Source of the DNA: a virus
Virus record (IMG/VR): IMGVR_UViG_3300045988_115450
Location: 43,582-107,581 of that record
Length of the DNA stretch: 64,000 nucleotides
Reading direction: 5' to 3' (one strand)
The position numbers and the translations under genes were made by a program. Each line of letters starts with the position of its first letter. The first letter of the stretch is position 1. The notes beneath the pieces were generated by a model. It did no database searches, was not told the DNA's origin, and saw only the letters and a list, made by a program, of their open reading frames with translations. Of the stretch, positions 1-43,775 are shown one piece after another.

Positions 1-125
1 TTCTCAAGCCCAGCTCTTGCCAACAATTCGGCTACAGTGGAACCGGACGCACCACAACCGATGATATGTACTCTTTCTTTAACCTTCGTGGGATTAAAGA
101 ACTCAATACTCTTCGATAAATTCAT
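1..125 (-). CDS. ThiF/MoeB-type E1-like adenylyltransferase, N-terminal fragment (gene runs off window start)
   Basis: Reverse-strand ATG at 125-123 preceded by GGAGG. Translation MNLSKSIEFFNPTKVKERVHIIGCGASGSTVAELLARAGLE contains the Rossmann GxGxxG loop (GCGASG) typical of ThiF/E1 enzymes. Confidence 0.6.
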   Translation of the reverse strand, partial: MNLSKSIEFFNPTKVKERVHIIGCGASGSTVAELLARAGLE

Positions 126-137
126 CTTTATACCTCC

Positions 138-416
138 TTATAGCATTAAACAATTCAAAAATACATCACTATCGACTTTACTTTCAATCGGCTCAAACAT
201 CCAAGAAGCCCAAGCAACAAATCTTAATTTGCCTCTTTCTTCAATGCAAATACGTTCAACTTGAATGCCGTTAATCAAGGATGTCAATGAGCGCACTGTT
301 ATGATCTTACCGCAATAGCGCGTTTTATCCCCTTCAAATATCCCGTGATCATTTTTAGAAAGAATCGCCGTTCCACTACCTGTATCTACGGAAAACAGAT
401 CAGGGTCAGACATCAT
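138..416 (-). CDS. NCL(L/M)L-tail small protein paralogue 1. An in-frame TAG at 423-425 separates it from a 16-codon N-terminal piece at 426-473.
   Basis: ORF track 92 aa ending DVFLNCLML. Upstream in the same frame MKLEDMYVGQKVRVRS-TAG resembles the N-termini of paralogues 2-4. Confidence 0.5.
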   Translation of the reverse strand: MMSDPDLFSVDTGSGTAILSKNDHGIFEGDKTRYCGKIITVRSLTSLINGIQVERICIEERGKLRFVAWASWMFEPIESKVDSDVFLNCLML

Positions 417-480
417 GTCTTCCTAACTCCTCACCCTGACCTTCTGCCCAACATACATATCTTCAAGTTTCATACGTCAC

Positions 481-813
481 CTACAACAACAAACAGTTCA
501 TAAAAACCTGCTCATCAATAGATTGCTTTAACCGCAACACACTTTTATAGAAAGACATCTCTTTTTTGCTAACCCTTACCCTGTACCAACCGCCAAGTTC
601 ATACTCAACGATCTCGCCGCCGTCTCTTATAAACTCTCTGAGGCAAGGATCGCCCTCCGCGTACATCACATCGTCGGCGTATATAAATCTTTCGTTTGTG
701 ATGATGTCTACGCTCTGCGACACAGCCCCATTCGGAAATACCGCCCGTAAGTTATCATTAAATTCATCCCACGTTTTTGGAATAAACTCAACCCGCTGCC
801 CAGGTCTAAACAT
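481..813 (-). CDS. NCLLL-tail small protein paralogue 2
   Basis: 110 aa ORF with RBS GAGGTGA before the ATG. N-terminus MFRPGQRVEFIPKTWDEF, C-terminus EQVFMNCLLL, both shared with neighbours. Confidence 0.75.
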   Translation of the reverse strand: MFRPGQRVEFIPKTWDEFNDNLRAVFPNGAVSQSVDIITNERFIYADDVMYAEGDPCLREFIRDGGEIVEYELGGWYRVRVSKKEMSFYKSVLRLKQSIDEQVFMNCLLL

Positions 814-822
814 TATATCACC

Positions 823-1164
823 TCACAATAATAAGCAATTTATGAACAATTTTTCATCAATTGACCTCATGTCTTCTTTCAGACACAACACGCTTTCGTG
901 AAATTTCAGTTTTACTCCATTTATATTCACCATATACCAACCAGTAGCATAGTACTTGATAATCTCACCTCCATTTATTAGAAGCTCGTTAAACCAAGAA
1001 TCGCCTTCCCCATAAAGCACCCCTGCAACCAATATCATTTCTCTATGAGTAGTTGAGAATTCATCTAATATCATATCTCTCGCAAACAACTCCATTAAAG
1101 CATCCCGAAATTCATCCCATGACTTTGGGGCAAGCGTAACTTTCTGTCCAAGTTCAAACATCAT
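823..1164 (-). CDS. NCLLL-tail small protein paralogue 3
   Basis: 113 aa ORF. MMFELGQKVTLAPKSWDEF ... GWYMV ... EKLFINCLLL. RBS AGAGGTAA. Confidence 0.75.
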   Translation of the reverse strand: MMFELGQKVTLAPKSWDEFRDALMELFARDMILDEFSTTHREMILVAGVLYGEGDSWFNELLINGGEIIKYYATGWYMVNINGVKLKFHESVLCLKEDMRSIDEKLFINCLLL

Positions 1165-1171
1165 ATTACCT

Positions 1172-1501
1172 CTATAGCAGCAAACAATTCATAAGTACCT
1201 CTTCGTCAACATATGCTTCTTCCATCGACCGTAGCATCGTCTCATAGAACCACGCTCTTTCTCCGCCAAAGTCTACAATGTACCAACCACACTCGAAGTC
1301 TAATTCAATCACGCCACTCATCCTGCGTAACTTATAAAAATCGGGAGCGCTATATCCTGCTGCACTAGCTGCAAGATACCCAGTGGTATCACAGCTCGTA
1401 AACCTTTTTGCGCTGCGAGGAAGATGCTTTAGGTAAGCGCTGCAAAACTCATCCCAGCTCCTCAATGCTATCCTGACTCGTTGTCCGATCTCGAACATCA
1501 T
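1172..1501 (-). CDS. NCLLL-tail small protein paralogue 4
   Basis: Start moved to MMFEIGQRV (RBS AGAGGAG 6 nt upstream). Ends EEVLMNCLLL. Confidence 0.7.
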   Translation of the reverse strand: MMFEIGQRVRIALRSWDEFCSAYLKHLPRSAKRFTSCDTTGYLAASAAGYSAPDFYKLRRMSGVIELDFECGWYIVDFGGERAWFYETMLRSMEEAYVDEEVLMNCLLL

Positions 1502-1511
1502 ATCAACTCCT

Positions 1512-1856
1512 CTATAACAGCAGGCAATCCATAAGTGTCTTTTCGTCAACACTTTTTTCTTTTAATTGACACGGCGCTGTTTCGCCCGGCCCACCCACCA
1601 AACACTCATCTCTTACTTCGCCAAAGTCAACGCGCCAAATCCAATAGTCATCCGGTTCCAGATAAATTGTCGCTCCGTATTTATCTGGAGCATTAAAATT
1701 GTCACCTTCAATCATTTCGCATCCATCATCGACGCATTCTTGAAACACTGAATGAAACCTACGTTTCACGTGTTCCACCGCACTCTCCAAATTCCAATAA
1801 ACACCGGATAAATCAATACCCTGGTCTGTTTCTGTTATCACACAATATACCTTCAT
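1512..1856 (-). CDS. NCLLL-tail small protein paralogue 5 (divergent N-terminus)
   Basis: Start at MKVYCV with RBS AAAGGAGAAG (an alternative upstream ATG lies at 1961). Ends EKTLMDCLLL. YWIWRVDFGE aligns with GWYIVDFGGE of paralogue 4. Confidence 0.6.
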   Translation of the reverse strand: MKVYCVITETDQGIDLSGVYWNLESAVEHVKRRFHSVFQECVDDGCEMIEGDNFNAPDKYGATIYLEPDDYWIWRVDFGEVRDECLVGGPGETAPCQLKEKSVDEKTLMDCLLL

Positions 1857-2030
1857 ACCGGTCTTCTCCTTTCTTATGTACCTCTGAACAGCTAACCAGC
1901 TGTTTAAGTTCAAAAGTTTTCTGCTCTGGGAGTAGGAAAACTTTTGAAGCGACACAGCCATTTGTTACTCCCTCGTTCCGACAAGAGTGATATGTAATTT
2001 AACATATCTGTACAGGCACATATGTTTTTT

Positions 2031-2717
2031 TTACTTAATTAACATCTTACCGTCACGCCAATCGGGCCGCTCATCAATAATTTTATCTGCGTCCTCCATG
2101 AATTCTTCAAGCTCAACCGCGGCGTTCATAATCCACTCGATGCCATCCTGTACATCACGCACGTCCACCTTCTCAAACCGGTCAATGTTATCGAAAAACC
2201 ATCTGCACAAATCATATACAGCGGGGTTCCATCGTTCCACTGCGAGTTCCACATTGTCGCTTTCGTATAGGATGCCTTCTCTAACATCATAAACCTGTGA
2301 AGATATGTAGCCTTTCTTATTGAAAATCTGAAAGACGTAGAAATCATCAACGTCTGTCAGCAAATCTGCTCTATACTTTATATCCGTAGAAGATGGACTG
2401 ACACCCATGTTCACATGAGAATGCCCGTACAACCGAACCTTATTGAATATCTCCGTGTTAAGAGAATCCTGCCAGTTCACATAGTCCGCATCTTCAGGTT
2501 CGGTGCTTGCCGACGTGACCTTCTGAGGGAATACCAAGACGTCCTCCACGATAAACTCAGCTGGATTTTCCAACCTTCTTACAACTCCGTGCCATCCAAC
2601 CTCCAGATTCCTATTCATAACAAGCAAACACGTCTTCATCCATGCCTTCTTACTGTATACGATTTTGCACGGATTTGTCGCGGCCAACAAATCCGTTGCA
2701 TTAGTTGCCTTATTCAT
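2031..2717 (-). CDS. JAB/MPN (JAMM) metallopeptidase-domain protein
   Basis: 228 aa. Contains EVGWHG ... HSHVNMGVSPSSTD, which fits E-x(n)-HxH-x7-S-xx-D. RBS AAGGAGAA. The start overlaps the upstream stop. Confidence 0.8.
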   Translation of the reverse strand: MNKATNATDLLAATNPCKIVYSKKAWMKTCLLVMNRNLEVGWHGVVRRLENPAEFIVEDVLVFPQKVTSASTEPEDADYVNWQDSLNTEIFNKVRLYGHSHVNMGVSPSSTDIKYRADLLTDVDDFYVFQIFNKKGYISSQVYDVREGILYESDNVELAVERWNPAVYDLCRWFFDNIDRFEKVDVRDVQDGIEWIMNAAVELEEFMEDADKIIDERPDWRDGKMLIK

Positions 2718-4125
2718 TGCTCTTATTCTCCTTTATCCATTTAATTGCGTCGATGTAATTAACTACTCGCCCATCCGGCAACTCCAATACTACAGCGCCT
2801 TTTCTCAACAACTCTTCAAGGAATGATCTCAATACGACAGTATCACTAAGATTCAGATTCCCGCTTTCGGCGCACGTCGTGTCTACCGTATAAACGTAGT
2901 CACATTTGTCGCAAGATTTCTCTAGCGCCTGTTGCCAGCTCCCCATGCAACCATATTTATCAAGGTGTGTGTTGGGGAGATAGCTGTTGTATTCACAGCC
3001 ATACCCATATGCCTTGATGGGTAGTACCATTCCTCCGAAAGAAAGTCTCCATGCGGAACACATTCTTACTTTGATATTAGAGTCAATGAAAATCCCTGTC
3101 ATTAACTTTTTAGTATCACTTTCTGTCAGGCCCACATACGAAGACCGCGTATAAAAAATCGACGACCGATTGTTGATGTACTCTCTCGCAATCTCTGGAT
3201 CAAACAGTGTCATATAACCAGTTACAACATATACGATATTCCCATCTTTGTCACCGCTCTCAACGGACACATTTTTGTTCGACAAAAAATAATCCATTAA
3301 CTCGTTCTTGCTTTCAACATTACTGTTGTCAATTGCTTCCACCAACAAAGACCAACCTTCGTATTCTCTATACCAATCTCTCAAATCGGACATCAATTTA
3401 TTGATCTGACTTCTTGCACTCTCCATCTTCTTTGCGTATCTTTCCCTCTGTACGTTCCTTAGCTTTCCCTCATAGCCATAAAGGTAATATCTCTTTTTAG
3501 CTGAGGCCACGTCCACAGCAGCGGCAACCATATCGTTCATCGCTTTACAGATTACACTCATGCCGGAGTCTTCTTTAGACAGAATCTTAATAAACTTTGA
3601 CTCCGCTTCAGTCCTGTCTTTAATGTACCATGGGCAGAATACATTGAAAAGACACACTAGGTAATGCCACGAGCCATAGTTATCCACGTTGGTAAGGACA
3701 ACCGTACTCTTCCTCTCTTCATTACTGAAAATTCTCAGTATGATACCGAGTCGTTCTTTCATTAGATTCAGCTCTCTTGCCGTCTTCTCTTTCCAACTGC
3801 TCGCACATTTCATATTACTGACTAAAGTTTCTACGGCCTTAACCTTATCACACACGCAAAATGTAATCGTGTTGTCTTGAGAAGTTACCTCCGAAAAACG
3901 CTCTTTGTCTTTTATCCACGTAATCCAATCAGCACAATTAGGATCTACCACTCTAACCATGATACGCACGTCCGCCGGAACTCTTGGCTTCAAAAACAAC
4001 CGAGCCATTGCCAACGCAAAGTCATCGCCTTTGAACGTCCCGTCACCAGCAATATTAGAAAACTCAGACTCCAGCTCTGGGGCCAGCACTAAAACTTCAC
4101 TGCGTTTCAAACAATTTGAAAACAT
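2710..4125 (-). CDS. Large cassette protein, function unknown (C-terminal Cys-rich region with an LPNTHLDKYGC motif)
   Basis: Long ORF. Start set at MFSNCLKR with RBS AAAGGAGAAG. Translationally coupled to the JAB gene. Confidence 0.7.
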   Translation of the reverse strand: MFSNCLKRSEVLVLAPELESEFSNIAGDGTFKGDDFALAMARLFLKPRVPADVRIMVRVVDPNCADWITWIKDKERFSEVTSQDNTITFCVCDKVKAVETLVSNMKCASSWKEKTARELNLMKERLGIILRIFSNEERKSTVVLTNVDNYGSWHYLVCLFNVFCPWYIKDRTEAESKFIKILSKEDSGMSVICKAMNDMVAAAVDVASAKKRYYLYGYEGKLRNVQRERYAKKMESARSQINKLMSDLRDWYREYEGWSLLVEAIDNSNVESKNELMDYFLSNKNVSVESGDKDGNIVYVVTGYMTLFDPEIAREYINNRSSIFYTRSSYVGLTESDTKKLMTGIFIDSNIKVRMCSAWRLSFGGMVLPIKAYGYGCEYNSYLPNTHLDKYGCMGSWQQALEKSCDKCDYVYTVDTTCAESGNLNLSDTVVLRSFLEELLRKGAVVLELPDGRVVNYIDAIKWIKENKSNE

Positions 4126-4207
4126 ATATCTTCTCCTTTCTTTATGAACTCTTGGCAGGCCATCCGACGTAACCGAATGCCCTCCCAGCAACTCACTGTG
4201 TTATGTA

Positions 4208-4232
4208 CGAGGCCGGACAATGTCCGGCCTCG
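4208..4232 (-). promoter_or_regulatory. Strong intercistronic hairpin (11 bp stem, no U tract)
   Basis: CGAGGCCGGAC-aat-GTCCGGCCTCG, lying between the stop of the 79 aa gene and the start of the 471 aa gene. Confidence 0.5.
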
Positions 4233-4251
4233 TAGATTGTGCTAACTCAAA

Positions 4252-4491
4252 TCAGATCGCGTTACCTTGCGCCTTAACAATAGCACTCAGAGTACAAATA
4301 CCAGCGGCACCAAGTTCGGCAAAAGTGCAATCCATATCATCAGGCGTCAGAATCGTGCCGGAAAGAGAATTGACGCTACGGCTGCACTCAATTCCGATCT
4401 TCTCGAACAGAGAACGAGGGGTCTCTACATGTTCATCTACGGCCTGGCTATCAAAACGGCGGGTGGTACTTCTAACATTCACAATAATCAT
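4252..4491 (-). CDS. Small ubiquitin-like (beta-grasp-like) protein candidate
   Basis: 79 aa. The alternating hydrophobic pattern MIIVNVRS...SLFEKIGIE...LSGTIL...FAELGAAGICTLSAIVKAQG-NAI is compatible with a ThiS/MoaD/Ub fold. There is a Gly at residue 76 followed by 3 residues. The gene sits in the cassette with JAB and ThiF. Confidence 0.45.
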   Translation of the reverse strand: MIIVNVRSTTRRFDSQAVDEHVETPRSLFEKIGIECSRSVNSLSGTILTPDDMDCTFAELGAAGICTLSAIVKAQGNAI

Positions 4492-4532
4492 AATATACTT
4501 CCTTTCTGTTATTACATCTATGCTTATTTGTT

Positions 4533-4922
4533 TTAGCCAGCTACTACGATCTTGGAACTGACCCGTGCCATCATAACGTCGATCTCTTCCAGCGCTTCGC
4601 GCACCTGGGCTTCAATCTTTTCTACCTTCTCGATAACAGAAGCATATCTCTCGGCAACAACCTCACGTACGGAACGGTCAGCTTCGGTAATAAGACTCAC
4701 AGTTACGACCGCACGACCAGAGCCATCACAAGACTCAGCCTCATAGATAATACCGGTCGGTGCTACTACGCCTCTCTCGCCAGCGAGAGTGTAAAACAGT
4801 GCGTTGCCATCTTCGTCCAGCAGTTGCACAGACTTAGGCCGGTACAGAGCTGCGCGATTGATTTCTTCAAGAGTGAAAGCACTCTTGAGTGTTACTGCGT
4901 TACCACACACAATAATTTCCAT
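4533..4922 (-). CDS. Cassette protein, unknown function (ends ...VVAG)
   Basis: 129 aa ORF with RBS AAAGGAGAAG. Confidence 0.7.
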   Translation of the reverse strand: MEIIVCGNAVTLKSAFTLEEINRAALYRPKSVQLLDEDGNALFYTLAGERGVVAPTGIIYEAESCDGSGRAVVTVSLITEADRSVREVVAERYASVIEKVEKIEAQVREALEEIDVMMARVSSKIVVAG

Positions 4923-5363
4923 ATTCTTCTCCTTTTCATATGTCTAATTATGTATTATAAAGTGATTCTATATATGGAATGATAGACCTAACCCGTGCGT
5001 TAGTACGCTGACGGGCTTGGTTATCTGAGGTACTGTGTGATCGACGTCGCTCCAACTCCGCATCGCTTTGGCGTTTGATGCCTTACGCTGTAACGGTGGT
5101 AGGCAAGTTGTGCGGCTTTCTTTATATGCTTCGCTTAGTAATCTTAGCCTTCTTGTCGCATCCATGACGCCGAGAGGTTTCTGGTCGAGAGCCATCGAGG
5201 TTGGTGCAACCTTTGCGATGCTTCCCACACCTTCGGACGATATGTTACTCTCCCATTCTGGCAAGAGCCTCTGTGAATTTCAGAGTTTGCAATCACTTTA
5301 TAAATACATTTCTAATACGGTTAAAAAAATCAGATAAAAGAATTATTTGGACTAAATGCTCAC

Positions 5364-6218
5364 TTAGTTTTCCTGCTGTCCACTCCAAACAACCAGACAA
5401 TCAGGATTGGGGACACCTCTGGTTTCCTTACCATCTAGCCATCTAGCCAGTACATAAGAGGTCGTCAAGAACACACGGTGGCGGTAATGCTTGCACCGGC
5501 CATCAATAGCAGAATCCTTAATCCAATCTCTCAAGCGGACAATCTGCCTATCCAAACTAGACTCAGCATAACCAGTCTGAAGAACATTCCAGAAATATTC
5601 GAGCCTAACATCGCTCGCCCCGGCTTCTTTCGCCAGATACATGGCAGCTGTGATCGGAGCCGTGCCAAGCTTTCTCTGTCTCACCTTCAAGAAACTATTA
5701 ACCCAGGAGAATTCAGCGATGTGCTTCGAAATCATGTCCGCTCTCTTAGCTTCATTCTCCAAGTGCCTCGCACTAAATTCATTCAGCACCATGCAGATTG
5801 CAACCGAGCGCTTGTAAGAAGAAATCTTTCCTCTGTTTCCGCCCTCGGCCATACACAAAGCGTCGGCTTCACTTCTCGCCCTACCCCGGTCAATGTACGG
5901 ACTGCGTTCCATATTGAACAGGAAGAACATCTTTACTGTCTTACCGCAGCGCTTCACCGCTTCGAGCCGGTGATGCCCGTCAATAAGAACACCAGCCTTA
6001 TCAAACATAATAAAGCCGGTCGGAGTATTTTCATCCCATGTGCCATTCATCATATGGGACTTGTACTTATTCACAGTGCTCTTACTGATCGGACGATTGC
6101 CGCCGGACATAGCCAACAAACCCGTCGCCATTTCCGGAGACACGTAAGCATACGCCAACTGTCCACCGTTCCGTTCTTCTAGCAACAAGTTGCTCAACAA
6201 TTCTTCATAAGCTGTCAT
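5364..6218 (-). CDS. ParB/Srx N-terminal domain-like protein
   Basis: Start moved to MTAYEELL (RBS AGGAGG) because the ORF-track start overlaps a tRNA. Motifs NRPISKSTVNKYKSHMMNGTW and IDGHHRLEA match the ParB-like nuclease/CTPase fold. Confidence 0.7.
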   Translation of the reverse strand: MTAYEELLSNLLLEERNGGQLAYAYVSPEMATGLLAMSGGNRPISKSTVNKYKSHMMNGTWDENTPTGFIMFDKAGVLIDGHHRLEAVKRCGKTVKMFFLFNMERSPYIDRGRARSEADALCMAEGGNRGKISSYKRSVAICMVLNEFSARHLENEAKRADMISKHIAEFSWVNSFLKVRQRKLGTAPITAAMYLAKEAGASDVRLEYFWNVLQTGYAESSLDRQIVRLRDWIKDSAIDGRCKHYRHRVFLTTSYVLARWLDGKETRGVPNPDCLVVWSGQQEN

Positions 6219-6244: not shown

Positions 6245-6321
6245 TGGTGGTTCCTGCCCGGCTCGAACGGGCGACCATCCAGTTATGAGCTGGACGCGCT
6301 AACCAACTGCGCTAAGGAACC
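6245..6321 (-). tRNA. tRNA-Met or Ile2 (anticodon CAU), CCA encoded
   Basis: Manual cloverleaf GGTTCCT/AGGAACC acceptor, loop CTCATAA, T arm GCCCG-TTCGAGC-CGGGC. Confidence 0.85.
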
Positions 6322-6397
6322 AGGTACGTTTAAAGCCGCTGAATTTATCAGCGGCTTTAAACTGTTAATGAAAGCAAGTGTCCGTATAAAACGAACG

Positions 6398-6472
6398 TGG
6401 CAGCGCCGGACTGAGATCGAACAGTCTTCCACGGAGTCAAAGTCCGTTGCATTACCGTTATGCTACGGCGCT
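6398..6472 (-). tRNA. tRNA-Gln (UUG), CCA encoded
   Basis: Acceptor AGCGCCG/CGGCGCT, anticodon arm ACGGA-CTTTGAC-TCCGT. The T loop is slightly irregular. Confidence 0.7.
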
Positions 6473-6583
6473 ATATAAATCAAGCAGAGCAGAGCAGAGT
6501 TTAAAGCCATTCCAGGCTATGTAAAGAAAGGAGGTGGTTTATCAACAATAACAGGTAGGAGAATCATTTTCTGTTGCTTGATA

Positions 6584-6658
6584 TGGGGTAGGCGACGAGT
6601 GCCGATCTCGCGTTTCCGGTTTGGAAGACCGGTGTTCTAGCCGTTGAACTACGCCTAC
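6584..6658 (-). tRNA. tRNA-Gly (UCC), CCA encoded
   Basis: Acceptor GTAGGCG/CGCCTAC, anticodon arm CCGGT-CTTCCAA-ACCGG. Confidence 0.75.
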
Positions 6659-6688
6659 ATTTTTGCGGTTCCGCAAACCGCATTTTTT

Positions 6689-7318
6689 TTAATTCATATA
6701 TAAATCATAATAACTTTGTTTTCTTCTTGGTTTCAAATCTGGATTTTTTAAACGCCTTTTGATGAACTCAACTGTATTATCCAGCCCATAGTTCCTGACG
6801 TATGTATTGATCCTGTTTGCTCCCAAACCTAAAGTTTTAGCCCAGTCCTTCCCAGTATGTATCGTTCCGTCAACATCAATAAGCGAAGTTGTAGACTTGT
6901 ATTTCGAATTATCTGCCAATGTTACCCATCTGCAATTATCAGGAGAATAATCCCCGTCCCAATCAATTCTATCAATAGTCAAACCATCATCGTACCCGTT
7001 AGTTAATGACCAACTCTCAAATAATTCTGGATTGCGCATCCAATCATCACAAACCTTAACACCCTTAGCGCCATACCATCTGTAGCTCTTATTACTCTTA
7101 TCATAGCACCTAGCTTTCATATCGCTAAAAATTCTCCGGAGCTTGTCGTCACTCCATGAAGCATCATAATTTATATAACCCCCGCTTCTTCCGATATGTC
7201 TACAAGCTTTCGCCTGCTCAATATGCCTTTTCTGTTTGTTCGTTTCAAACCCACACTCAGCACATCTCACATGGTATAATCTATGCCCGTCCCTATGCCT
7301 GAAATCACACTCATACAA
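6689..7318 (-). CDS. HNH/homing-endonuclease-like protein inserted in the tRNA array
   Basis: 209 aa. N-terminal CxxC..CRH zinc-like motif. YRWYGAKGVKVCDDW ... LTIDRIDWDGDYSPDNCRWVTLADN resembles the IDRIDNxGxYxxxNCRW signature of phage HNH-type proteins (from memory). Confidence 0.55.
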   Translation of the reverse strand: MYECDFRHRDGHRLYHVRCAECGFETNKQKRHIEQAKACRHIGRSGGYINYDASWSDDKLRRIFSDMKARCYDKSNKSYRWYGAKGVKVCDDWMRNPELFESWSLTNGYDDGLTIDRIDWDGDYSPDNCRWVTLADNSKYKSTTSLIDVDGTIHTGKDWAKTLGLGANRINTYVRNYGLDNTVEFIKRRLKNPDLKPRRKQSYYDLYMN

Positions 7319-7466
7319 GACATCGAAAATACCTATCCTAGTACCAACAATATTCTCTTTTTCCAGAATATCACCATCTTTCTGCGTGTTGCTAAATAAT
7401 AATCCGATGAGAGTGCTGCCCTCTCGCCTGCGTTGTTCACTGTACTACTGTTATACTAATCGGATG

Positions 7467-7547
7467 TACGGGCGACAAGATTTGAACTTGCAAGCCTTAC
7501 GGCACCGGGGCCTAAACCCGGCGTGTATACCGTTCCACCACGCCCGC
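7467..7547 (-). tRNA. tRNA-Leu (UAG), class II, no CCA
   Basis: Anticodon arm CCGGG-TTTAGGC-CCCGG, long variable arm, T arm GCAAG-TTCAAAT-CTTGT. Confidence 0.75.
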
Positions 7548-7629
7548 ATGGCACCACTAAGTCATGGTCGGCTGCGCATTTATCCTTTTTTGAATCGTGG
7601 TAGATGATTTTGCTTCGTACAACCACGCA

Positions 7630-7704
7630 TGGACTGAGTGGAGAATTTTGAAATCTCGACCTCTGGTTCCCAAAACCAGCGTTCTGCCTCTGAACTACAC
7701 CCAG
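7630..7704 (-). tRNA. tRNA-Pro (UGG), CCA encoded
   Basis: C1-G72 acceptor CTGGGTG/CACTCAG, anticodon arm CTGGT-TTTGGGA-ACCAG. Confidence 0.7.
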
Positions 7705-7707
7705 ATA

Positions 7708-7782
7708 TGGAGGCCGATGCGAGTTCGAACTCAGCGTCTGTGGGTTACAAAGCCACTGTTTTACCACTTAAACTAATCGGCC
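7708..7782 (-). tRNA. tRNA-Thr (UGU), CCA encoded
   Basis: Acceptor GGCCGAT/ATCGGCC, loop TTTGTAA, with a 31-39 mismatch. Confidence 0.7.
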
Positions 7783-7932
7783 ACGCACCCCGTTTTGCGG
7801 GGTGGCTATGTAAGGGAATCAAAAAGGGGAACTCCTGTCTCTTCCAGGATGCCAACACACTACTACGGACTGCCAGAGGCAAACCGCCACTTTTCAGGTG
7901 TCATAGTCCGCAAACTATGGGCTTTTCTTTAG

Positions 7933-8014
7933 TGCGGGATAAGAGACTTGAACTCTTACGTCTATCGACATCGAGACTTAAACACGAGGTGTCTACCGAT
8001 TCCACCAATCCCGC
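7933..8014 (-). tRNA. tRNA-Leu (UAA), class II, no CCA
   Basis: Acceptor GCGGGAT/ATCCCGC, loop TTTAAGT, long variable arm, T arm AAGAG-TTCAAGT-CTCTT. Confidence 0.8.
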
Positions 8015-8367
8015 ATATTGAACTTGCTACAACCCAGCCTGGTGGTTGACCCGTGGGCGTTGATAACTGACCCAAACCATTAACCCAGGATTTTGTAAAA
8101 CTTTAACCGTTAACCTTTGATTCTTGAACTTTAATCTTCTGAAGATCTTTGAGCCTTGAATTTTGAAATTTTAACTTTGAAGTTTGAGCTTTACAGCAAC
8201 ATTTCTTCTATAAGAAATTAGATTAACAGTCCAATCTTTTTGTAAGCGCAAAATTTCAAGTTTTGCTTTGTAGTTGGCACATATTTGTTCATTTTTACAT
8301 CGAACCAAGTGCCGTCAGCACGATGGGTTACCGTTTTAGGTTTTCGGGTTGCAGCAAGTTGCTTATT

Positions 8368-9021
8368 TTAGTATTCTACGGTGATTGTAGTGGTCGCATT
8401 GGACACAGATAGCTGAGAATCTACATCCGCAGTAAACGTGTCAATCCAATCGCTCAAAACCTTGATTTCATTACCAATGTCAAGCGGATCAACGAGTTCA
8501 TACGTATTGTTGGCAATATACTCTTCTCTCAACCGCTTAACGACCTCAGAATCCTTGGTTGTCTTGGCCTCTTTAGGCTGGCACTGGAGGAAATTCATGA
8601 TATACTGTTCAGCTTTCGCTTCAATCCACTCGCCTTCATGTTTGGAAACCTCAGCACGGGCTCTTTCGTACTGCCGGACCATTACATCAAGCAAATCTTT
8701 CTTAGCCATGATTCCATGGCTTTTCATTTCGATGGCTTCGGCTACGGTGTAAGGTTCGCCGCCAATTACCACCGGGGTTTTGGCATTGGAGAGCACAACT
8801 GCTCTCTTAATAGCCGTCCGACGAGCAATCAAGTCCGTAACAGACTGATAATCAGACTTCATATCCTTCTTGAGGGTTTCGACCAGCACACCGCCGATCT
8901 TTTTGTCGCTCACTTTCTTACTGGCAACGAAGGTTTTACCAGAAGTAGCATTGAAAATTCTAGCGTCCAAAATTTTCAGCTCTGCAAGAGCTTTATGGAC
9001 GGTCATAGTTTCTTTGTTCAT
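8368..9021 (-). CDS. Hypothetical protein embedded in the tRNA array
   Basis: 217 aa ORF with an ATG start. No motif recognised. Confidence 0.7.
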   Translation of the reverse strand: MNKETMTVHKALAELKILDARIFNATSGKTFVASKKVSDKKIGGVLVETLKKDMKSDYQSVTDLIARRTAIKRAVVLSNAKTPVVIGGEPYTVAEAIEMKSHGIMAKKDLLDVMVRQYERARAEVSKHEGEWIEAKAEQYIMNFLQCQPKEAKTTKDSEVVKRLREEYIANNTYELVDPLDIGNEIKVLSDWIDTFTADVDSQLSVSNATTTITVEY

Positions 9022-9072
9022 ATTAGTTCCTCACTTTCTTATTTATGGAATTAGATTTTTATCGTGGTATCG

Positions 9073-9163
9073 TGGTCTCCCTGGGTGAATTCGAATCACC
9101 ATATACCTTATGAGGGCCTTCCAATTATAAGTTGGAAGCTATAACCAATTTAGCTACAGGGAG
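9073..9163 (-). tRNA. Atypical 91 nt tRNA, anticodon UAU (Ile-AUA reading) with a class II-like 19 nt variable arm, CCA encoded
   Basis: Acceptor CTCCCTG/CAGGGAG, D arm GCTA..TAGC, anticodon arm (CT)TCCAA-CTTATAA-TTGGA(AG), T arm GGTGA-TTCGAAT-TCACC. Confidence 0.6.
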
Positions 9164-9443
9164 ATATTTGTTCAGCAACCACAACCGCCCTATCAATCAG
9201 TCGGCCTAACCAAAAGATAGGGCTGGATTGTGTTGCCCAACCGTGCCTGAGAGCTTTCTTGCCTAGCCTGTACTTAACCAGGTGTCTGCAATCAATGTTT
9301 AGGTTGCTGGTTTTGACCCTCGCTCTAGAACCAGTTAACTAGAGCGATTGAGAGCTACTAGACGGAATTGCACCGCCTTGAAGTCATAAGTGAGGCGCGA
9401 GAGGAGTTACGCCCACCTCTTCACCTGCTTGGAGTAGCATATG

Positions 9444-9519
9444 TGGCACCAGCACTAAGATTCGAACTTAGAACTACGGTTTTGGAGACCGCCGTTTTTC
9501 CACTTAAAACTATGCTGGT
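9444..9519 (-). tRNA. tRNA-Trp (CCA), CCA end encoded
   Basis: Acceptor ACCAGCA/TGCTGGT, loop CTCCAAA, T arm CTAAG-TTCGAAT-CTTAG. Confidence 0.85.
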
Positions 9520-11489: not shown

Positions 11490-11900
11490 TTACCGCACTT
11501 CAACCAACCGACCACCAATGTAATCAAACCGGGCTAGGACTTCATATTCGTGCTTGTTGTCAAGCACGAAGTAGGACGTGACAACCATTCCAGCAGGAAT
11601 GTTCCCACGATATGCAATGTAATCATGACCGCAGTCACAATCTTCCACATACCCTTCGCCATTTCCACCGGCAATCCAATCCTCTTTTACGATATAGATT
11701 GCGTTGGGGTCCAGAGCGTCATTGACGTACTGCTGGTGGGTAATCAGCTTAACCTTGTCGTCGTTAAATCTGGGCTGTTCCTGCTCAATTACCGTAGTAG
11801 CATCATCACCAGCACACTTCACCGTTACGACGATCCCCCACACTGCCATAGCTGCGATGACGATTGCCAGGATAGCGACACACTTTTTCTTGACGTTCAT
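11490..11900 (-). CDS. Membrane-anchored/secreted hypothetical protein
   Basis: 136 aa with an N-terminal hydrophobic helix KKKCVAILAIVIAAMAVWGIVV. Confidence 0.65.
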   Translation of the reverse strand: MNVKKKCVAILAIVIAAMAVWGIVVTVKCAGDDATTVIEQEQPRFNDDKVKLITHQQYVNDALDPNAIYIVKEDWIAGGNGEGYVEDCDCGHDYIAYRGNIPAGMVVTSYFVLDNKHEYEVLARFDYIGGRLVEVR

Positions 11901-11953
11901 TTTAAATTCCTCCTACCTGTTTCTTTCATTGTTACTTCCATAGGTATACCTCC

Positions 11954-12331
11954 TTACAAAACCCTGCATTCAATAACGGGGATGCCATTCTCTTCGAGCT
12001 TCTTATATGCTTCGGCTTGTTCTACCCATACCTTCTTGTCGTCTTCAAAACCATCGTGTTCCATAATGGCCTCCCTGTATTTATCCGAGTTCGTGCTACG
12101 GATGGCATACAGGAAACCATCCTTAACGAAGAAGCATTTTGCTCCGAGTGTGTTATACACGCCAATCTTTTTCAGCGTGTGCCAGAACTCAAGACTCTGG
12201 CTAAGTTGAACATCCCCTAGCTTAGTGACTCCTCTCACAATTCCGCGAGTCTTACTGTCGTCGTCTTTAATCGTGATGGTAGACTTGCCGATTTTGACGT
12301 TTCGACCGACCAAATCCATCATGCTTGCCAT
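11954..12331 (-). CDS. Hypothetical protein
   Basis: Start set at MASMMDLVG with RBS AAAGGAGAA. Confidence 0.6.
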   Translation of the reverse strand: MASMMDLVGRNVKIGKSTITIKDDDSKTRGIVRGVTKLGDVQLSQSLEFWHTLKKIGVYNTLGAKCFFVKDGFLYAIRSTNSDKYREAIMEHDGFEDDKKVWVEQAEAYKKLEENGIPVIECRVL

Positions 12332-12352
12332 GGCTATTCTCCTTTCTACCCA

Positions 12353-12384
12353 TAAGAAAAGACCGTGCTGATTAGCACGGTCTT
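12353..12384 (-). terminator. Rho-independent terminator
   Basis: AAGACCGTGC..GCACGGTCTT followed by TTTCTT in minus sense. Confidence 0.65.
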
Positions 12385-12417
12385 GCAATGGATTTATTAA
12401 CTTAAGAGTCATGGGTG

Positions 12418-12834
12418 TCAAACCCGCGCCTCTGTTCCATACAAGTGCTTTACCTTCCTGCACCCGTCTGGGACCATATCGCTTACAACGATGTTCCACC
12501 TGATACTATAGGTCTTTGTTCTGCAATATGCCTGTGTGTCTTCCGCCCATGCTTCCAAAACTGATGTGCTACTTTCTTCCGCAGCACATCTATAGCTATT
12601 CAGCATATGCGAGTGACACCCATCAAGGCCGTCATATACTTCCACGATTCCGCACTCCACTTCGTCGCCTATCTTAGTGTAAGCAAGGACATAGACGTAT
12701 GGGATTTCCTTTTCTATTATATCCCAACTCTCGCCCTGTAGCTCAGCGACTTCCATAGCGTACTCACGAGAGACATAACCTTTATCGTAGGTTGTGCCTT
12801 TGTTGGTCTTCGTGCGGATCGTGTATAGTTTCAT
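12418..12834 (-). CDS. Hypothetical protein
   Basis: 138 aa ORF. Confidence 0.65.
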   Translation of the reverse strand: MKLYTIRTKTNKGTTYDKGYVSREYAMEVAELQGESWDIIEKEIPYVYVLAYTKIGDEVECGIVEVYDGLDGCHSHMLNSYRCAAEESSTSVLEAWAEDTQAYCRTKTYSIRWNIVVSDMVPDGCRKVKHLYGTEARV

Positions 12835-12865
12835 GTCTGGCCTCCTGTCGTGTAAGTGCTACCAT

Positions 12866-12894
12866 ATTATAACACCTACACCACCAGAGGTCAA
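12866..12894 (-). promoter_or_regulatory. Sigma70-type promoter
   Basis: Minus sense TTGACC-17 nt-TATAAT. Confidence 0.6.
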
Positions 12895-12897
12895 ACG

Positions 12898-13350
12898 TTA
12901 GAAGCACTCTCTATCCCGCTCTCTTTGCTCTTTGTATTCCATGAGATACTGGGCAGCCTCTCGACACACATCACCGCCTAATTCCTGGAGGAGCTTTGAT
13001 ACCTCCGTAATCCGCGCGTCCTTTCTCTCTTCTTCTGCGAGGCACTTGTTATACACCTCATCATCACTCATCATGCCCATAGCATGATAGAGGTCACTTC
13101 TGGATTTTATACCGGACAGCCATTCCTGACCATCCTTGGACTGCAATGCTTCCGCCATCTGAACGAGAGCCTGGTTGCGACATTCACTCGTAAAAGAGCA
13201 AGCAACCCATCTCAGTAGGCAGTCCTCGCAATCAGTATGGCAACAGTACCTAGTTACCCTCTCAATAGCTTTATACCAGCTCTCGCAGGTACAGCCACAG
13301 CAACCATCCACGCGATAGCTCTCGCAATTTTTGCATACGTTCACTTCCAT
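12898..13350 (-). CDS. Cys-rich hypothetical protein
   Basis: Start at MEVNVCKNCESY with RBS GGAGGAA. Several CxxC pairs. Confidence 0.6.
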   Translation of the reverse strand: MEVNVCKNCESYRVDGCCGCTCESWYKAIERVTRYCCHTDCEDCLLRWVACSFTSECRNQALVQMAEALQSKDGQEWLSGIKSRSDLYHAMGMMSDDEVYNKCLAEEERKDARITEVSKLLQELGGDVCREAAQYLMEYKEQRERDRECF

Positions 13351-13394
13351 ATTTGTTCCTCCATTTCTAATCAAAACCACTAGTAAACTAGTGG

Positions 13395-14105
13395 TTTGCA
13401 CAGACCCTAGAAGGGTCATTACAGGCAGAGCCCCTAAAGGGGCATTGAAAAGTTTGACACCGCATTACCATTACAGGCCGCCGCTAAAGCGGCCTGTTTT
13501 TATGCCTTCCTATTCTTGCTACCCGTAAACGGGTCAATGTATTCTTTCATCGTAATCTGATCCATCATTTCATCTTCAATCAACTGATTGCGGATATACT
13601 CTTCGATCACCCGCTTGTTCTTCCCTACCGTATCTACATAATAACCACGGCACCAGAAATGTCGGCTGCCATACTTGTATTTCAGATTTGCGTGGCGATC
13701 AAAAATCATCAGTGTGCTTTTTCCCTTGAGAAACCCCATAAACTGTGATACACTCAAATGCGGAGGCATACTCACCAACATATGCACATGGTCAATGCAC
13801 GTTTCTGCTTCAATAATCTCCACTTTCTTTTCGTCGCACAACTTCCTCAAAATCTTCCCAATATCCGCCCGCAATTCTCCATAGATTGCCTTACGACGAA
13901 ATTTCGGTGCAAATACCAGATGATACTGACATCTCCATGTCGTGTGTGCTCCATGGTGCAAGTCATTCTTTCCCATATCTATAACCTCCTTTTTGTTTCT
14001 TGGTAATGCGGTCGCCAAACCTTTACCATCTTACACTAGGAGGTTATTCTTTTCTACTTTTACTGAAGTTTTTCCCACCCCCAGTAGAACTGGGGGTTTT
14101 TTCAT
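13395..14105 (-). mobile_element. IS200/IS605-family insertion sequence (IS200 type, tnpA only); ends approximate
   Basis: Y1/HUH transposase gene flanked by subterminal hairpins: GACCCT..AGGGTC, GCCCCT..AGGGGC and AGGCCGC..GCGGCCT on one side, CCCCCAGT..ACTGGGGG on the other. Confidence 0.6.
13500..13976 (-). CDS. tnpA: IS200-family Y1 (HUH) transposase TnpA
   Basis: WRCQYHLVFAPKFRRK, DHVHMLVS (HUH) and WCRGYYVDTVG (catalytic Tyr). Start at MGKNDL with RBS AGGAGG. Confidence 0.85.
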   Translation of the reverse strand: MGKNDLHHGAHTTWRCQYHLVFAPKFRRKAIYGELRADIGKILRKLCDEKKVEIIEAETCIDHVHMLVSMPPHLSVSQFMGFLKGKSTLMIFDRHANLKYKYGSRHFWCRGYYVDTVGKNKRVIEEYIRNQLIEDEMMDQITMKEYIDPFTGSKNRKA

Positions 14106-14121
14106 GCTAAAGCGCCAACGA

Positions 14122-14154
14122 CAATAAAAACGCCCGCTAAGTAATAGCGGGCGT
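14122..14154 (-). terminator. Rho-independent terminator
   Basis: ACGCCCGCT..AGCGGGCGT followed by TTTTTATT in minus sense. Confidence 0.65.
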
Positions 14155-14225
14155 TGAAGACTTATTAAACCACCGTCATGGTAAAAAGAAAGCCGTACTT
14201 AGTACGGTGGTAAGACAGGTATGTA

Positions 14226-43033: not shown

Positions 43034-43775
43034 TTCCTTTACAAAACTGGAGCTGAACTATACAGGATCTTTGCCGGTAAAAGGGGTTGGTCACATACGC
43101 TGCCCTACTACCAATGAGATCGTGGAGGCTGGCGGTGAGGACGTATACAACTGGCGAATCGGTATGCTTTTATATACGAAGTCTCAACTAGCAGATAACT
43201 TAAACATAGAGTTAACACCGGATGTCGTAGAAGAGTTAAACTCCACTCCCCTCTTTTTGTTCTTAGTTGCGCAACAAGATTTTCGTAATGCAATTACAGA
43301 AGCGTTGTCATTCTTTCTAGATGAACGTCTTGTGTTTGATGAGCCGTCGGCGTCTTTTCTGACGTTACGTCCAGGCGTAGATGATATTGTCGGGAATATC
43401 AATTGCAGCAACTATGAGCAGGTGCGAGATTTAATTTTGCAACGTAATTATATGTCTCCTCCAAAAGAAGGGGTTGTTAAAAAGAAGAGTAAGAAAGAGC
43501 TAGAACGTGAAGCAAAGATAGCGGCAGGTAGAAAGAGATCCAAGAAATATAAGGACAGGCAGGATGCTATGCGGCTAGACAACGTTACATCTAAGTTAGC
43601 AGCAAGATCACACTCGATGAACATTCAAGACGTTTACAACTTAACAGTGTATCAACTGTACGATCAATTTAATGAAATCAACATGTCCCTACAGATTGAC
43701 ACCATCCTTACGCGCTGGAGCGTATGGGGCAAAGATGACTTTGACTTCTCTGTTTGGTGTCGCCCGAATGAGTGA
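43026..43775 (+). CDS. Structural protein, unknown role
   Basis: 249 aa ORF. Confidence 0.55.
   Translation: MVDSFTKLELNYTGSLPVKGVGHIRCPTTNEIVEAGGEDVYNWRIGMLLYTKSQLADNLNIELTPDVVEELNSTPLFLFLVAQQDFRNAITEALSFFLDERLVFDEPSASFLTLRPGVDDIVGNINCSNYEQVRDLILQRNYMSPPKEGVVKKKSKKELEREAKIAAGRKRSKKYKDRQDAMRLDNVTSKLAARSHSMNIQDVYNLTVYQLYDQFNEINMSLQIDTILTRWSVWGKDDFDFSVWCRPNE

Follow-up and report, generated by a model that had tools for sequence, protein, structure and literature searches.

A five-gene array between JAB and E1 genes

The window analysed here is a stretch of 64,000 nucleotides (positions 43,582 to 107,581 of IMG/VR record IMGVR_UViG_3300045988_115450) from an uncultured gut phage in which a ubiquitin-like conjugation gene cluster encloses five small genes. 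These genes, g1 to g5, are consecutive, co-oriented open reading frames (ORFs) on the minus strand at 138–1856, flanked upstream by the gene of a JAMM/JAB peptidase (JAB) and downstream by that of a ThiF-type E1 enzyme (E1).

138–416, minus strand: g1, 92 amino acids (aa), SH3-like member of the "g1-type", tail FLNCLML, N-terminally truncated in the window
481–813, minus strand: g2, 110 aa, SH3-like paralogue, tail FMNCLLL
823–1164, minus strand: g3, 113 aa, SH3-like paralogue, tail FINCLLL, the copy used for modelling
1172–1504, minus strand: g4, 110 aa, SH3-like paralogue, tail LMNCLLL
1512–1856, minus strand: g5, 114 aa, an unrelated body followed by a Gly/Pro linker and the tail LMDCLLL

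The intergenic gaps from g2 to g5 measure 7–9 nt, with 64 nt before g1 as currently called, and a ribosome-binding site of GGAGG or AGGTG type lies ahead of each array gene, just past the preceding stop codon. The window has 461 stop-to-stop ORFs with a length of 50 aa or more, and an ending of the form C[LM][LM]L is found in exactly five of them, g1–g5; the number expected from composition is 0.016. The shared module comprises ~13 residues, S-(V/I)-D-E-x-x-(F/L)-hydrophobic-(N/S/D/G)-C-L-(L/M)-L. Its Cys is invariant in ~45 sequences of the window clade, the residue before the Cys is there always small (N, S, D or G), and the tail is anchored exactly at the C-terminus in the window clade and in L084 (loci of the survey described below are given as L plus a number). 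The last seven residues are 69–81% identical, as against 25–36% for the paralogue bodies (window, L005, L012 and L084).

The tail is conserved as protein. Of 22 different DNA sequences of the tail, collected from the window and related phages, 12 have TGT for Cys and 10 have TGC; Leu(−3) uses four codons and Leu(−1) three, the three Leu positions using two to four each, and all three types of stop codon follow. Since the tail codons differ synonymously, selection acts on the protein, and the statement to this effect in the preliminary description of the array is borne out. A cause at the level of RNA or of the ribosome-binding site was considered and rejected, the ribosome-binding site lying past the stop codon and the tail codons being synonymously variable. 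A scan of positions 1–5400 for promoters and terminators gave counts not above those of shuffled sequence, and Megablast of positions 1–6000 against GenBank phages returned no match.

One tail on three kinds of body

The bodies were compared by BLASTP among g1–g5 after removal of the last 13 residues. The bodies of g2, g3 and g4 are clearly paralogous, with values of 1e-7 to 1e-24 (against g3, g2 gives 1e-24 and g4 1e-13). That of g1 barely matches g4 (E = 0.004, over the first strand only), and that of g5 has no detectable similarity to g1–g4 (E at least 1.1). The preliminary description had proposed a tandem five-gene family between the JAB and E1 genes with the ending (F/L)x(N/D)-C-L-(L/M)-L: the ORFs, the tails and the location stand, whilst a single homogeneous family does not. 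The N-terminal MMFExGQ(K/R)V and internal GWY.V blocks ascribed to all five proteins are confined to g2–g4, as would follow from the comparison, which clearly relates only these three.

The g5 body shows a weak resemblance to the Pfam domain DUF7336 (0.009). Its orthologue in L011, of 80 aa, ends directly after the domain without linker and tail, whereas in the window clade both follow the domain, so that the tail behaves as a transferable module. With g5 unrelated to g1–g4, g1 barely related to g2–g4 and the tail common to all, the tail is thus a portable module on three kinds of body.

Scans of g1–g5 with Pfam, PHROG and PADLOC gave nothing above threshold, in keeping with the earlier remark that the family was not recognised: no curated model of these three collections matches it. 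Searched exhaustively with HMMER, a set of 1.84 billion representative proteins gave only six strong matches to the family profile, all from the same phage clade, followed by weaker but significant matches to SH3-repeat proteins (E = 1.3e-8 to 1.6e-5). A match of the family to Pfam SH3_15 falls below threshold. From g1, jackhmmer reached ~50 relatives in a wider SH3-like phage family. Public records label the array proteins merely as hypothetical proteins of Caudoviricetes sp.

For g3, AlphaFold2 gives a model (pLDDT 84, pTM 0.75) in which a small beta barrel contains an inserted helix and is followed by a helix at the C-terminus. In Foldseek searches with this model, the top matches in the PDB are SH3, Mind bomb and PWWP domains, and those in BFVD are small uncharacterised phage SH3-like proteins; all are weak (E = 0.006–0.1, BFVD included). 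AlphaFold2 thus predicts an SH3-like barrel for g2–g4, and the g3 model is not a beta-grasp. The C-terminal helix that bears the tail is modelled with low confidence (pLDDT 56–59) beside the confident barrel, a combination typical of partner-dependent peptides.

Tails in sister phages

Relatives were collected from contigs encoding the matched proteins, from a scan of IMG/VR with a JAB profile (relatives on 303 contigs, 80 of which were retrieved), and from a genome scan that yielded 30 contigs of metagenome-assembled genomes (MAGs), mostly binned as Clostridia. Cluster genes were then counted by searching the ORFs of 91 sequences iteratively. The preliminary description had called for a survey of copy number and tail in related phages; this one gives two to five copies in close relatives and tails that are specific to the clade.

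Close relatives carry two to five tail-bearing genes between JAB and E1, together with truncated copies. Throughout the survey, paralogues within a genome have a common tail, which changes from clade to clade. L011 has FAAMLGI, FCAMLGI, FFKMLGV and others. In L084 (array at 4943–5209 and 11721–14188), EC(V/F)CxSLL ends five tandem copies and ECYCSSLL a sixth, non-homologous small protein. L031 and L036 have Cys-containing tails, FNELMCG and WGELLCG (..LMCG / ..LLCG), and the small SH3-like tandem arrays of L105 (11687–13087) and L107 (7302–8699) end in ENELMDFLS, ENELMGFLS and EDELKELFG. Further clades pair DDFLSAMRVN with DDFLSGIKINS and NFLSLFKKESD with NFLKLFGGR. The arrays of L084, L105 and L107 lie downstream of a retron-type reverse transcriptase (RT) gene and not in the JAB–E1 interval.

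All these tails share an acidic stretch and, after it, an amphipathic hydrophobic helix that lies at or close to the C-terminus. Several clades have extensions of variable length beyond the motif, so a fixed free C-terminus is no general requirement. Tails shared within a genome and specific to the clade are the pattern expected if one co-evolving partner reads all the copies. The likeness of some tails to the FtsZ C-terminal peptide, the beta-clamp-binding motif or the SSB tip is too loose to claim.

The same pattern bears on the possibility that the tail is a functionless relic of recent tandem duplication or of gene conversion at the gene junctions. The genes do stand in tandem with conserved junctions (tail, stop, ribosome-binding site, start), and copy number changes fast, from 2 to 5 with truncated copies besides. 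A relic would, however, have to keep the tail ~70% identical, under free synonymous change, on bodies that are 25–30% identical or unrelated, and the phenomenon recurs with other tails in L084, L011, L105 and L107; we regard this explanation as very improbable.

It bears equally on the Cys. The endings CLLL and CLML are formally of the C-a-a-X type in all five proteins, and the preliminary description had accordingly raised lipidation, processing or a thioester as roles for a Cys that is indeed invariant in the window clade; a near-terminal Cys also recurs in two other clades (L084; L031 with L036). In the alignment, however, the window-clade Cys position is occupied by Met or Ala elsewhere, and some tails have no Cys at all (L011, L026, L042, L047, L105 and others). 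A Cys, where the tail has one, stands at different distances from the end (−4, −5/−7 and −2). On the sequences compared, the tail Cys is specific to the window clade. The hosts, moreover, are bacterial, probably Clostridia, whilst protein prenyltransferases are eukaryotic enzymes, and the annotated neighbours include no prenyl or lipid enzyme and no CaaX protease. A CaaX-type box, a thioester or thiolactone, or another modification of the Cys is therefore extremely improbable. Homologues without the C-terminal Cys motif are what the preliminary description itself had named as refuting evidence, and its Cys-centred suggestion is set aside.

Damage to the E1-proximal copy

In the window, g1 is interrupted by an in-frame TAG at 424–422 where the orthologues have a Trp codon. 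The ancestral ORF ran from 472 to 138 on the minus strand, and its start at 472 is 8 nt past the g2 stop, the spacing seen at the other junctions. Orthologues of g1 are 111–123 aa long and begin MKLEDMYVGQKVRVR(S/N)WEDMM, whereas the sole possible product in the window is the 92-aa protein from the ATG at 416, in which the first strand is missing. The window copy of g1 is probably decaying. Recoding of TAG was considered as the reason for this codon and rejected, TAG being the stop that ends g2, g4 and g5 directly after the conserved tail.

Most public g1 orthologues have suffered a different change, one extra T in a T5 run (L001 10240–10320, corresponding to 125–165 of the window). In L006 (9890–9975) one extra A lies in the A-run of a different gene, an independent 1-nt indel. 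With either indel, reading continues in one and the same +1 frame, which overlaps the E1 start and gives ...RRYE(D/N)EF(I/V)EEY; the exact tail is lost, and the frameshifted allele is the commonest form of g1 in public data (~100 member sequences, compared with 3). There is no support for a programmed frameshift at the T-run in the gene next to E1, as the run is only T5 or T6 and the A-run indel of L006 has the same outcome; we read the L001 and L006 frameshifts as ordinary mutations. Because the frameshifted end, DVFFELFNAI..., still resembles the general motif of the family, the function of this copy may persist despite its new end.

The surrounding cluster

The array is set in a six-gene cluster composed of P129, Ubl, BIG, JAB, a minimal E1 and a retron-type RT, which occupies positions 1–4922 of the window together with the sequence to the left of position 1 (5775–12836 in L005). 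In the window it comprises the following features.

1–125, minus strand: N-terminal 41 codons of the ThiF-type E1, the gene running off the window (222 aa in relatives)
1857–2030, minus strand: structured spacer of 174 nt between JAB and g5
2031–2717, minus strand: JAB/JAMM metallopeptidase, 228 aa, with HSHVNMGVSPSSTD present
2710–4128, minus strand: BIG, a 471/472-aa protein, overlapping the JAB start
4252–4491, minus strand: Ubl, a candidate ubiquitin-like protein of 79 aa with the end ...VKAQGNAI
4533–4922, minus strand: P129, the 129-aa conserved first gene of the cluster

A relative of JAB is encoded in more than 300 viral contigs. The cluster is borne on phage contigs of ~50–135 kb and is complete in most of the 91 sequences, Clostridia-binned MAG contigs included; by gene, P129 is present in 84, Ubl in 88, BIG in 91, JAB in 90, E1 in 88 and RT in 84.

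The E1 fragment in the window has the GCGASGS loop and matches the PADLOC E1–E2 models at 1e-7. A full-length orthologue of 222 aa matches Pfam PF00899 (ThiF) and PADLOC E1–E2 at 3e-17, and UBA5, MccB and MoeB among PDB chains at ~1e-9. The identity of E1 across clades is 45–67%. In JAB the JAMM motif (E...HxHx7Sx2D) is exact, with E39, H99-x-H101, S109 and D112 invariant in 30 homologues; the top five matches of its profile to the PDB are all RPN11, weak (E = 0.15), and PADLOC JAB matches at 0.035. A DHH phosphoesterase is inserted ahead of JAB in L008.

The invariant residues N386, H388 and C394 of BIG form N-x-H-x5-C and are spaced as in the HPN..C motif of E2 enzymes. Its AlphaFold2 model (pLDDT 85.6) found no match in the PDB by Foldseek and shows no UBC fold, and in hhalign against the E2 enzyme UBE2D2 the PN..C motif alone was aligned, with a probability of 0.24%. 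An E2 identity for BIG, for which PDB sequence profiles, Foldseek and hhalign give nothing beyond a 16-column motif, is not supported.

The profile of the Ubl family matches ThiS (E = 0.0075), SAMP2 and ubiquilin UBL domains, and 10 of its 12 weak matches are beta-grasp proteins. Nearly all copies end in VKAD(N/S)A. A Ubl–Ubl tandem protein is encoded in L011 (3862–4332), and in L086 (4560–5921), L029 (4965–5567) and L008 (2972–3604) P129 is fused behind Ubl. In both kinds of fusion the junction coincides with the conserved end, VK(A/G)D(N/S/G)A, an architecture as expected for precursors cut by JAB. On this evidence the 79-aa protein is the candidate Ubl of the cluster, and the fusions suggest that JAB cuts at this end and that P129 is functionally tied to Ubl.

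The JAB–g5 spacer takes up a predicted fold of four hairpins (minimum free energy −50.2 kcal/mol, z = −3.5), the stems of which are partly kept in L001 despite sequence changes, and it matches no Rfam family. It could be a leader with a regulatory role, or a processing site, that divides the upstream cluster genes from the tail-bearing genes. In relatives, the RT that follows E1 is of the retron type (PADLOC 6e-41 to 4e-51); L009 has a UG27-type RT. Immediately past the E1 stop and ahead of RT, two close relatives carry the orphan Rfam "skipping-rope" RNA RF02924 (L005 11215–11295 and L013 10234–10314, bit scores 50.3 and 38.9 for a gathering score of 36.7), which was not found at E < 1e-3 in L001, L006, L010 and L012. 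Further along the window, a cluster of nine tRNAs lies on the minus strand at 6245–9519, interspersed with an HNH-like ORF (6689–7318); one of them, tRNA-Ile with anticodon TAT (9073–9163), is unusually long at 91 nt.

Relation of the array to the cluster

The SH3 family of the g1-type occurs in 31 of the 91 loci. All 34 copies of the window clade, L011 and L049 sit between JAB and E1, and in other clades 31 copies lie 1–6 kb downstream of RT on the same strand. In phages with a JAB 40–45% identical, JAB and E1 abut with no genes between. The domain is also found joined to BIG. In L019 a g1-type domain forms the N-terminus of BIG (hmmsearch E = 2e-17, residues 5–94), 11 loci with a BIG of 574 aa have a weaker N-terminal match to it (E ~2e-4), for which fusion is probable, and the BIG of L009 begins with two Xrn1-type SH3-like domains (Pfam 1.4e-12). 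The stand-alone and fused forms are nearly exclusive: 30 of the 91 loci have only the stand-alone form, 12 only the fused and one has both. Synteny of the wider SH3-like family with the cluster, together with the fusion of its domain to BIG, makes a functional tie to the E1/JAB system, as the preliminary description supposed, plausible; a role of the array proteins as modifiers in that system, which it also entertained, fits neither their SH3-like fold nor the presence of a dedicated candidate Ubl.

That role would make the array proteins substrates or alternative modifiers, JAB trimming the tail (for example N/S/D/G | Cys) and E1 adenylating the new C-terminus, as in QbsE/QbsD or MccA/MccB. 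It would account for the position of the genes between JAB and E1 in the window clade, for the small residue always found there before the Cys and for the placement of the tail at the exact C-terminus in that clade and in L084; MccB, which acts on a C-terminal Asn, is moreover among the closest solved relatives of E1. The cluster's own candidate Ubl, however, has a different and far more widely conserved end, VKAD(N/S)A, and shows the fusion pattern typical of processed precursors, whilst the g3 model is SH3-like and not beta-grasp. A conserved C-terminal Gly or other small residue, as a modifier should have, is lacking: the array proteins end in Leu, and the small residue before the Cys is a feature of the window clade only. 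In most clades the motif is extended or wholly different while E1 stays 45–67% identical. Adjacency to E1 and a deconjugating peptidase holds for the window clade and not for most related phages, where the genes are away from E1. An SH3 domain fused to the N-terminus of BIG, too, resembles an enzyme domain and not a substrate. A role as a substrate or as an E1-activated modifier is for these reasons unlikely.

The location of the genes outside the cluster in most phages allows another explanation, namely that they encode early host-takeover or anti-defence proteins independent of the cluster, the tail being a degron or a mimic of a host hub peptide, read by a host protease or hub and conferring a common fate or address. 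The array lies in an early/accessory region with ArdA, DpnD-PcfM, RtcB and tRNAs; non-polar C-termini are classic protease tags (ssrA/ClpXP, Tsp), and SH3-like relatives exist in phages that lack best matches to the cluster genes. The tails differ sharply, however, among related phages whose likely hosts are all Clostridia, which is unexpected for a conserved host receptor. The fusions to BIG argue for a shared pathway. We regard this explanation as doubtful.

What we favour, tentatively, is that the five genes encode interchangeable accessory or adaptor subunits of the cluster, docked through their tail, a reading of the sequences that is possible and short of probable. They would be small, clade-specific accessory proteins in which one C-terminal module is carried on three different bodies, the NCLLL tail being the local form of an acidic-plus-amphipathic C-terminal helix present family-wide in every clade. 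A tail that is shared and under selection suggests docking: it would serve as a docking peptide for one common partner, and the variable bodies would give different binding specificities. The partner would most likely be a component of the cluster (P129, Ubl, BIG, JAB, E1 or, in relatives, RT). Fusion and synteny together point to BIG as the first candidate, with the array proteins as its exchangeable adaptor or specificity subunits and not as a modifier activated by E1.

Several observations weigh against this proposal. In 48 of the 91 loci there is no copy, stand-alone or fused, within ±8 kb. Most phages have these genes outside the cluster, where synteny could reflect a shared early-gene region, and SH3-like relatives occur in Enterococcus phages in which no JAB/E1 cluster genes are detectable. 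The exact tail was lost twice by frameshift in the E1-proximal copy of relatives. As regards the partner, the tail is invariant inside the window clade whilst identity is 53–58% for BIG and 90% for E1, which makes E1 an equally possible reader of the tail, and Foldseek and hhalign give no support to the assignment of BIG as an E2.

Non-homologous small proteins with one selected terminal peptide mark a common partner, and the 13 residues offer a bait as an experimental handle. If the partner is the Ubl/JAB/E1/BIG module, the array proteins would rank as the first proposed specificity factors of a ubiquitin-like system in a prokaryotic virus and would point to the targets of the cluster. Even under the alternative explanations, the tail defines a new class of short linear motif in phage early proteins. 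We found no description in the literature of the array proteins or of a cluster of this kind with a retron-type RT.

Comparison with known systems

The array family has in common with phrog_7488, DUF4314 and the Mind bomb SH3 repeat (PF18346) the barrel fold and a first-strand motif, (V)G(D/Q)(R/K)V. The copy of L031 matches phrog_7488 at 5e-14, whereas the window copies fall under every curated threshold, and a genome-specific shared C-terminal tail and a tie to a Ubl cluster are undescribed for these three families.

Rac1 is a CaaX-box protein ending in CLLL, and the last four residues of the array proteins are formally like those of such proteins; the bacterial host and a Cys that is not conserved in sister clades set them apart. 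In QbsE/QbsD, CysO/Mec+ and MccA/MccB the C-terminally trimmed substrates of the E1 are beta-grasp proteins or a heptapeptide. There, as here, genes for a JAMM peptidase and an E1-like enzyme stand beside those of small proteins with a potentially trimmable C-terminus, but the array proteins are SH3-like and the cluster has a separate candidate Ubl.

The cluster as a whole resembles the bacterial ubiquitination-like operons (Bil, BilABCD; Bub; type II CBASS, Cap2/Cap3; classes 6a–6e of Iyer et al. 2006, PMC1779556) in its co-oriented genes for a ThiF-type E1, a JAMM/JAB peptidase and a small protein that is here a candidate Ubl. It also has, like them, Ubl–Ubl and Ubl–partner fusions that imply processing by JAB. 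It differs in being borne by phages and in an E1 reduced to a minimal adenylation domain of 222 aa, in a Ubl that ends in KAD(N/S)A and not in Gly, and in having no demonstrable E2 of UBC fold, with BIG in that position. The retron-type RT after E1 and the arrays of tail-tagged SH3-like proteins are further differences of the phage cluster.

Poxvirus ankyrin proteins with the F-box-like PRANC motif, and F-box and SOCS-box adaptors, are paralogues in which a variable binding domain is combined with a short conserved docking motif at the C-terminus, by which they plug into a single conjugation machine. They are unrelated in sequence and fold to the array proteins, whose docking is proposed here from their tails, and the machine would in the present case be encoded by the phage and not by the host. 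The analogy would lie in the occurrence of several paralogues per genome, each with a variable body and a conserved C-terminal motif. Carried to its end, it leads to a picture that we consider improbable at present, in which gut phages of Clostridia encode their own Ubl conjugation machine (Ubl, JAB, minimal E1 and, as a new scaffold or conjugating enzyme, BIG), coupled to a retron-type RT, the targets of which would be chosen by SH3-like receptors of fast turnover plugging in via a co-evolving C-terminal tag. Such an arrangement would be the bacterial-virus counterpart of the F-box or PRANC families of substrate receptors.

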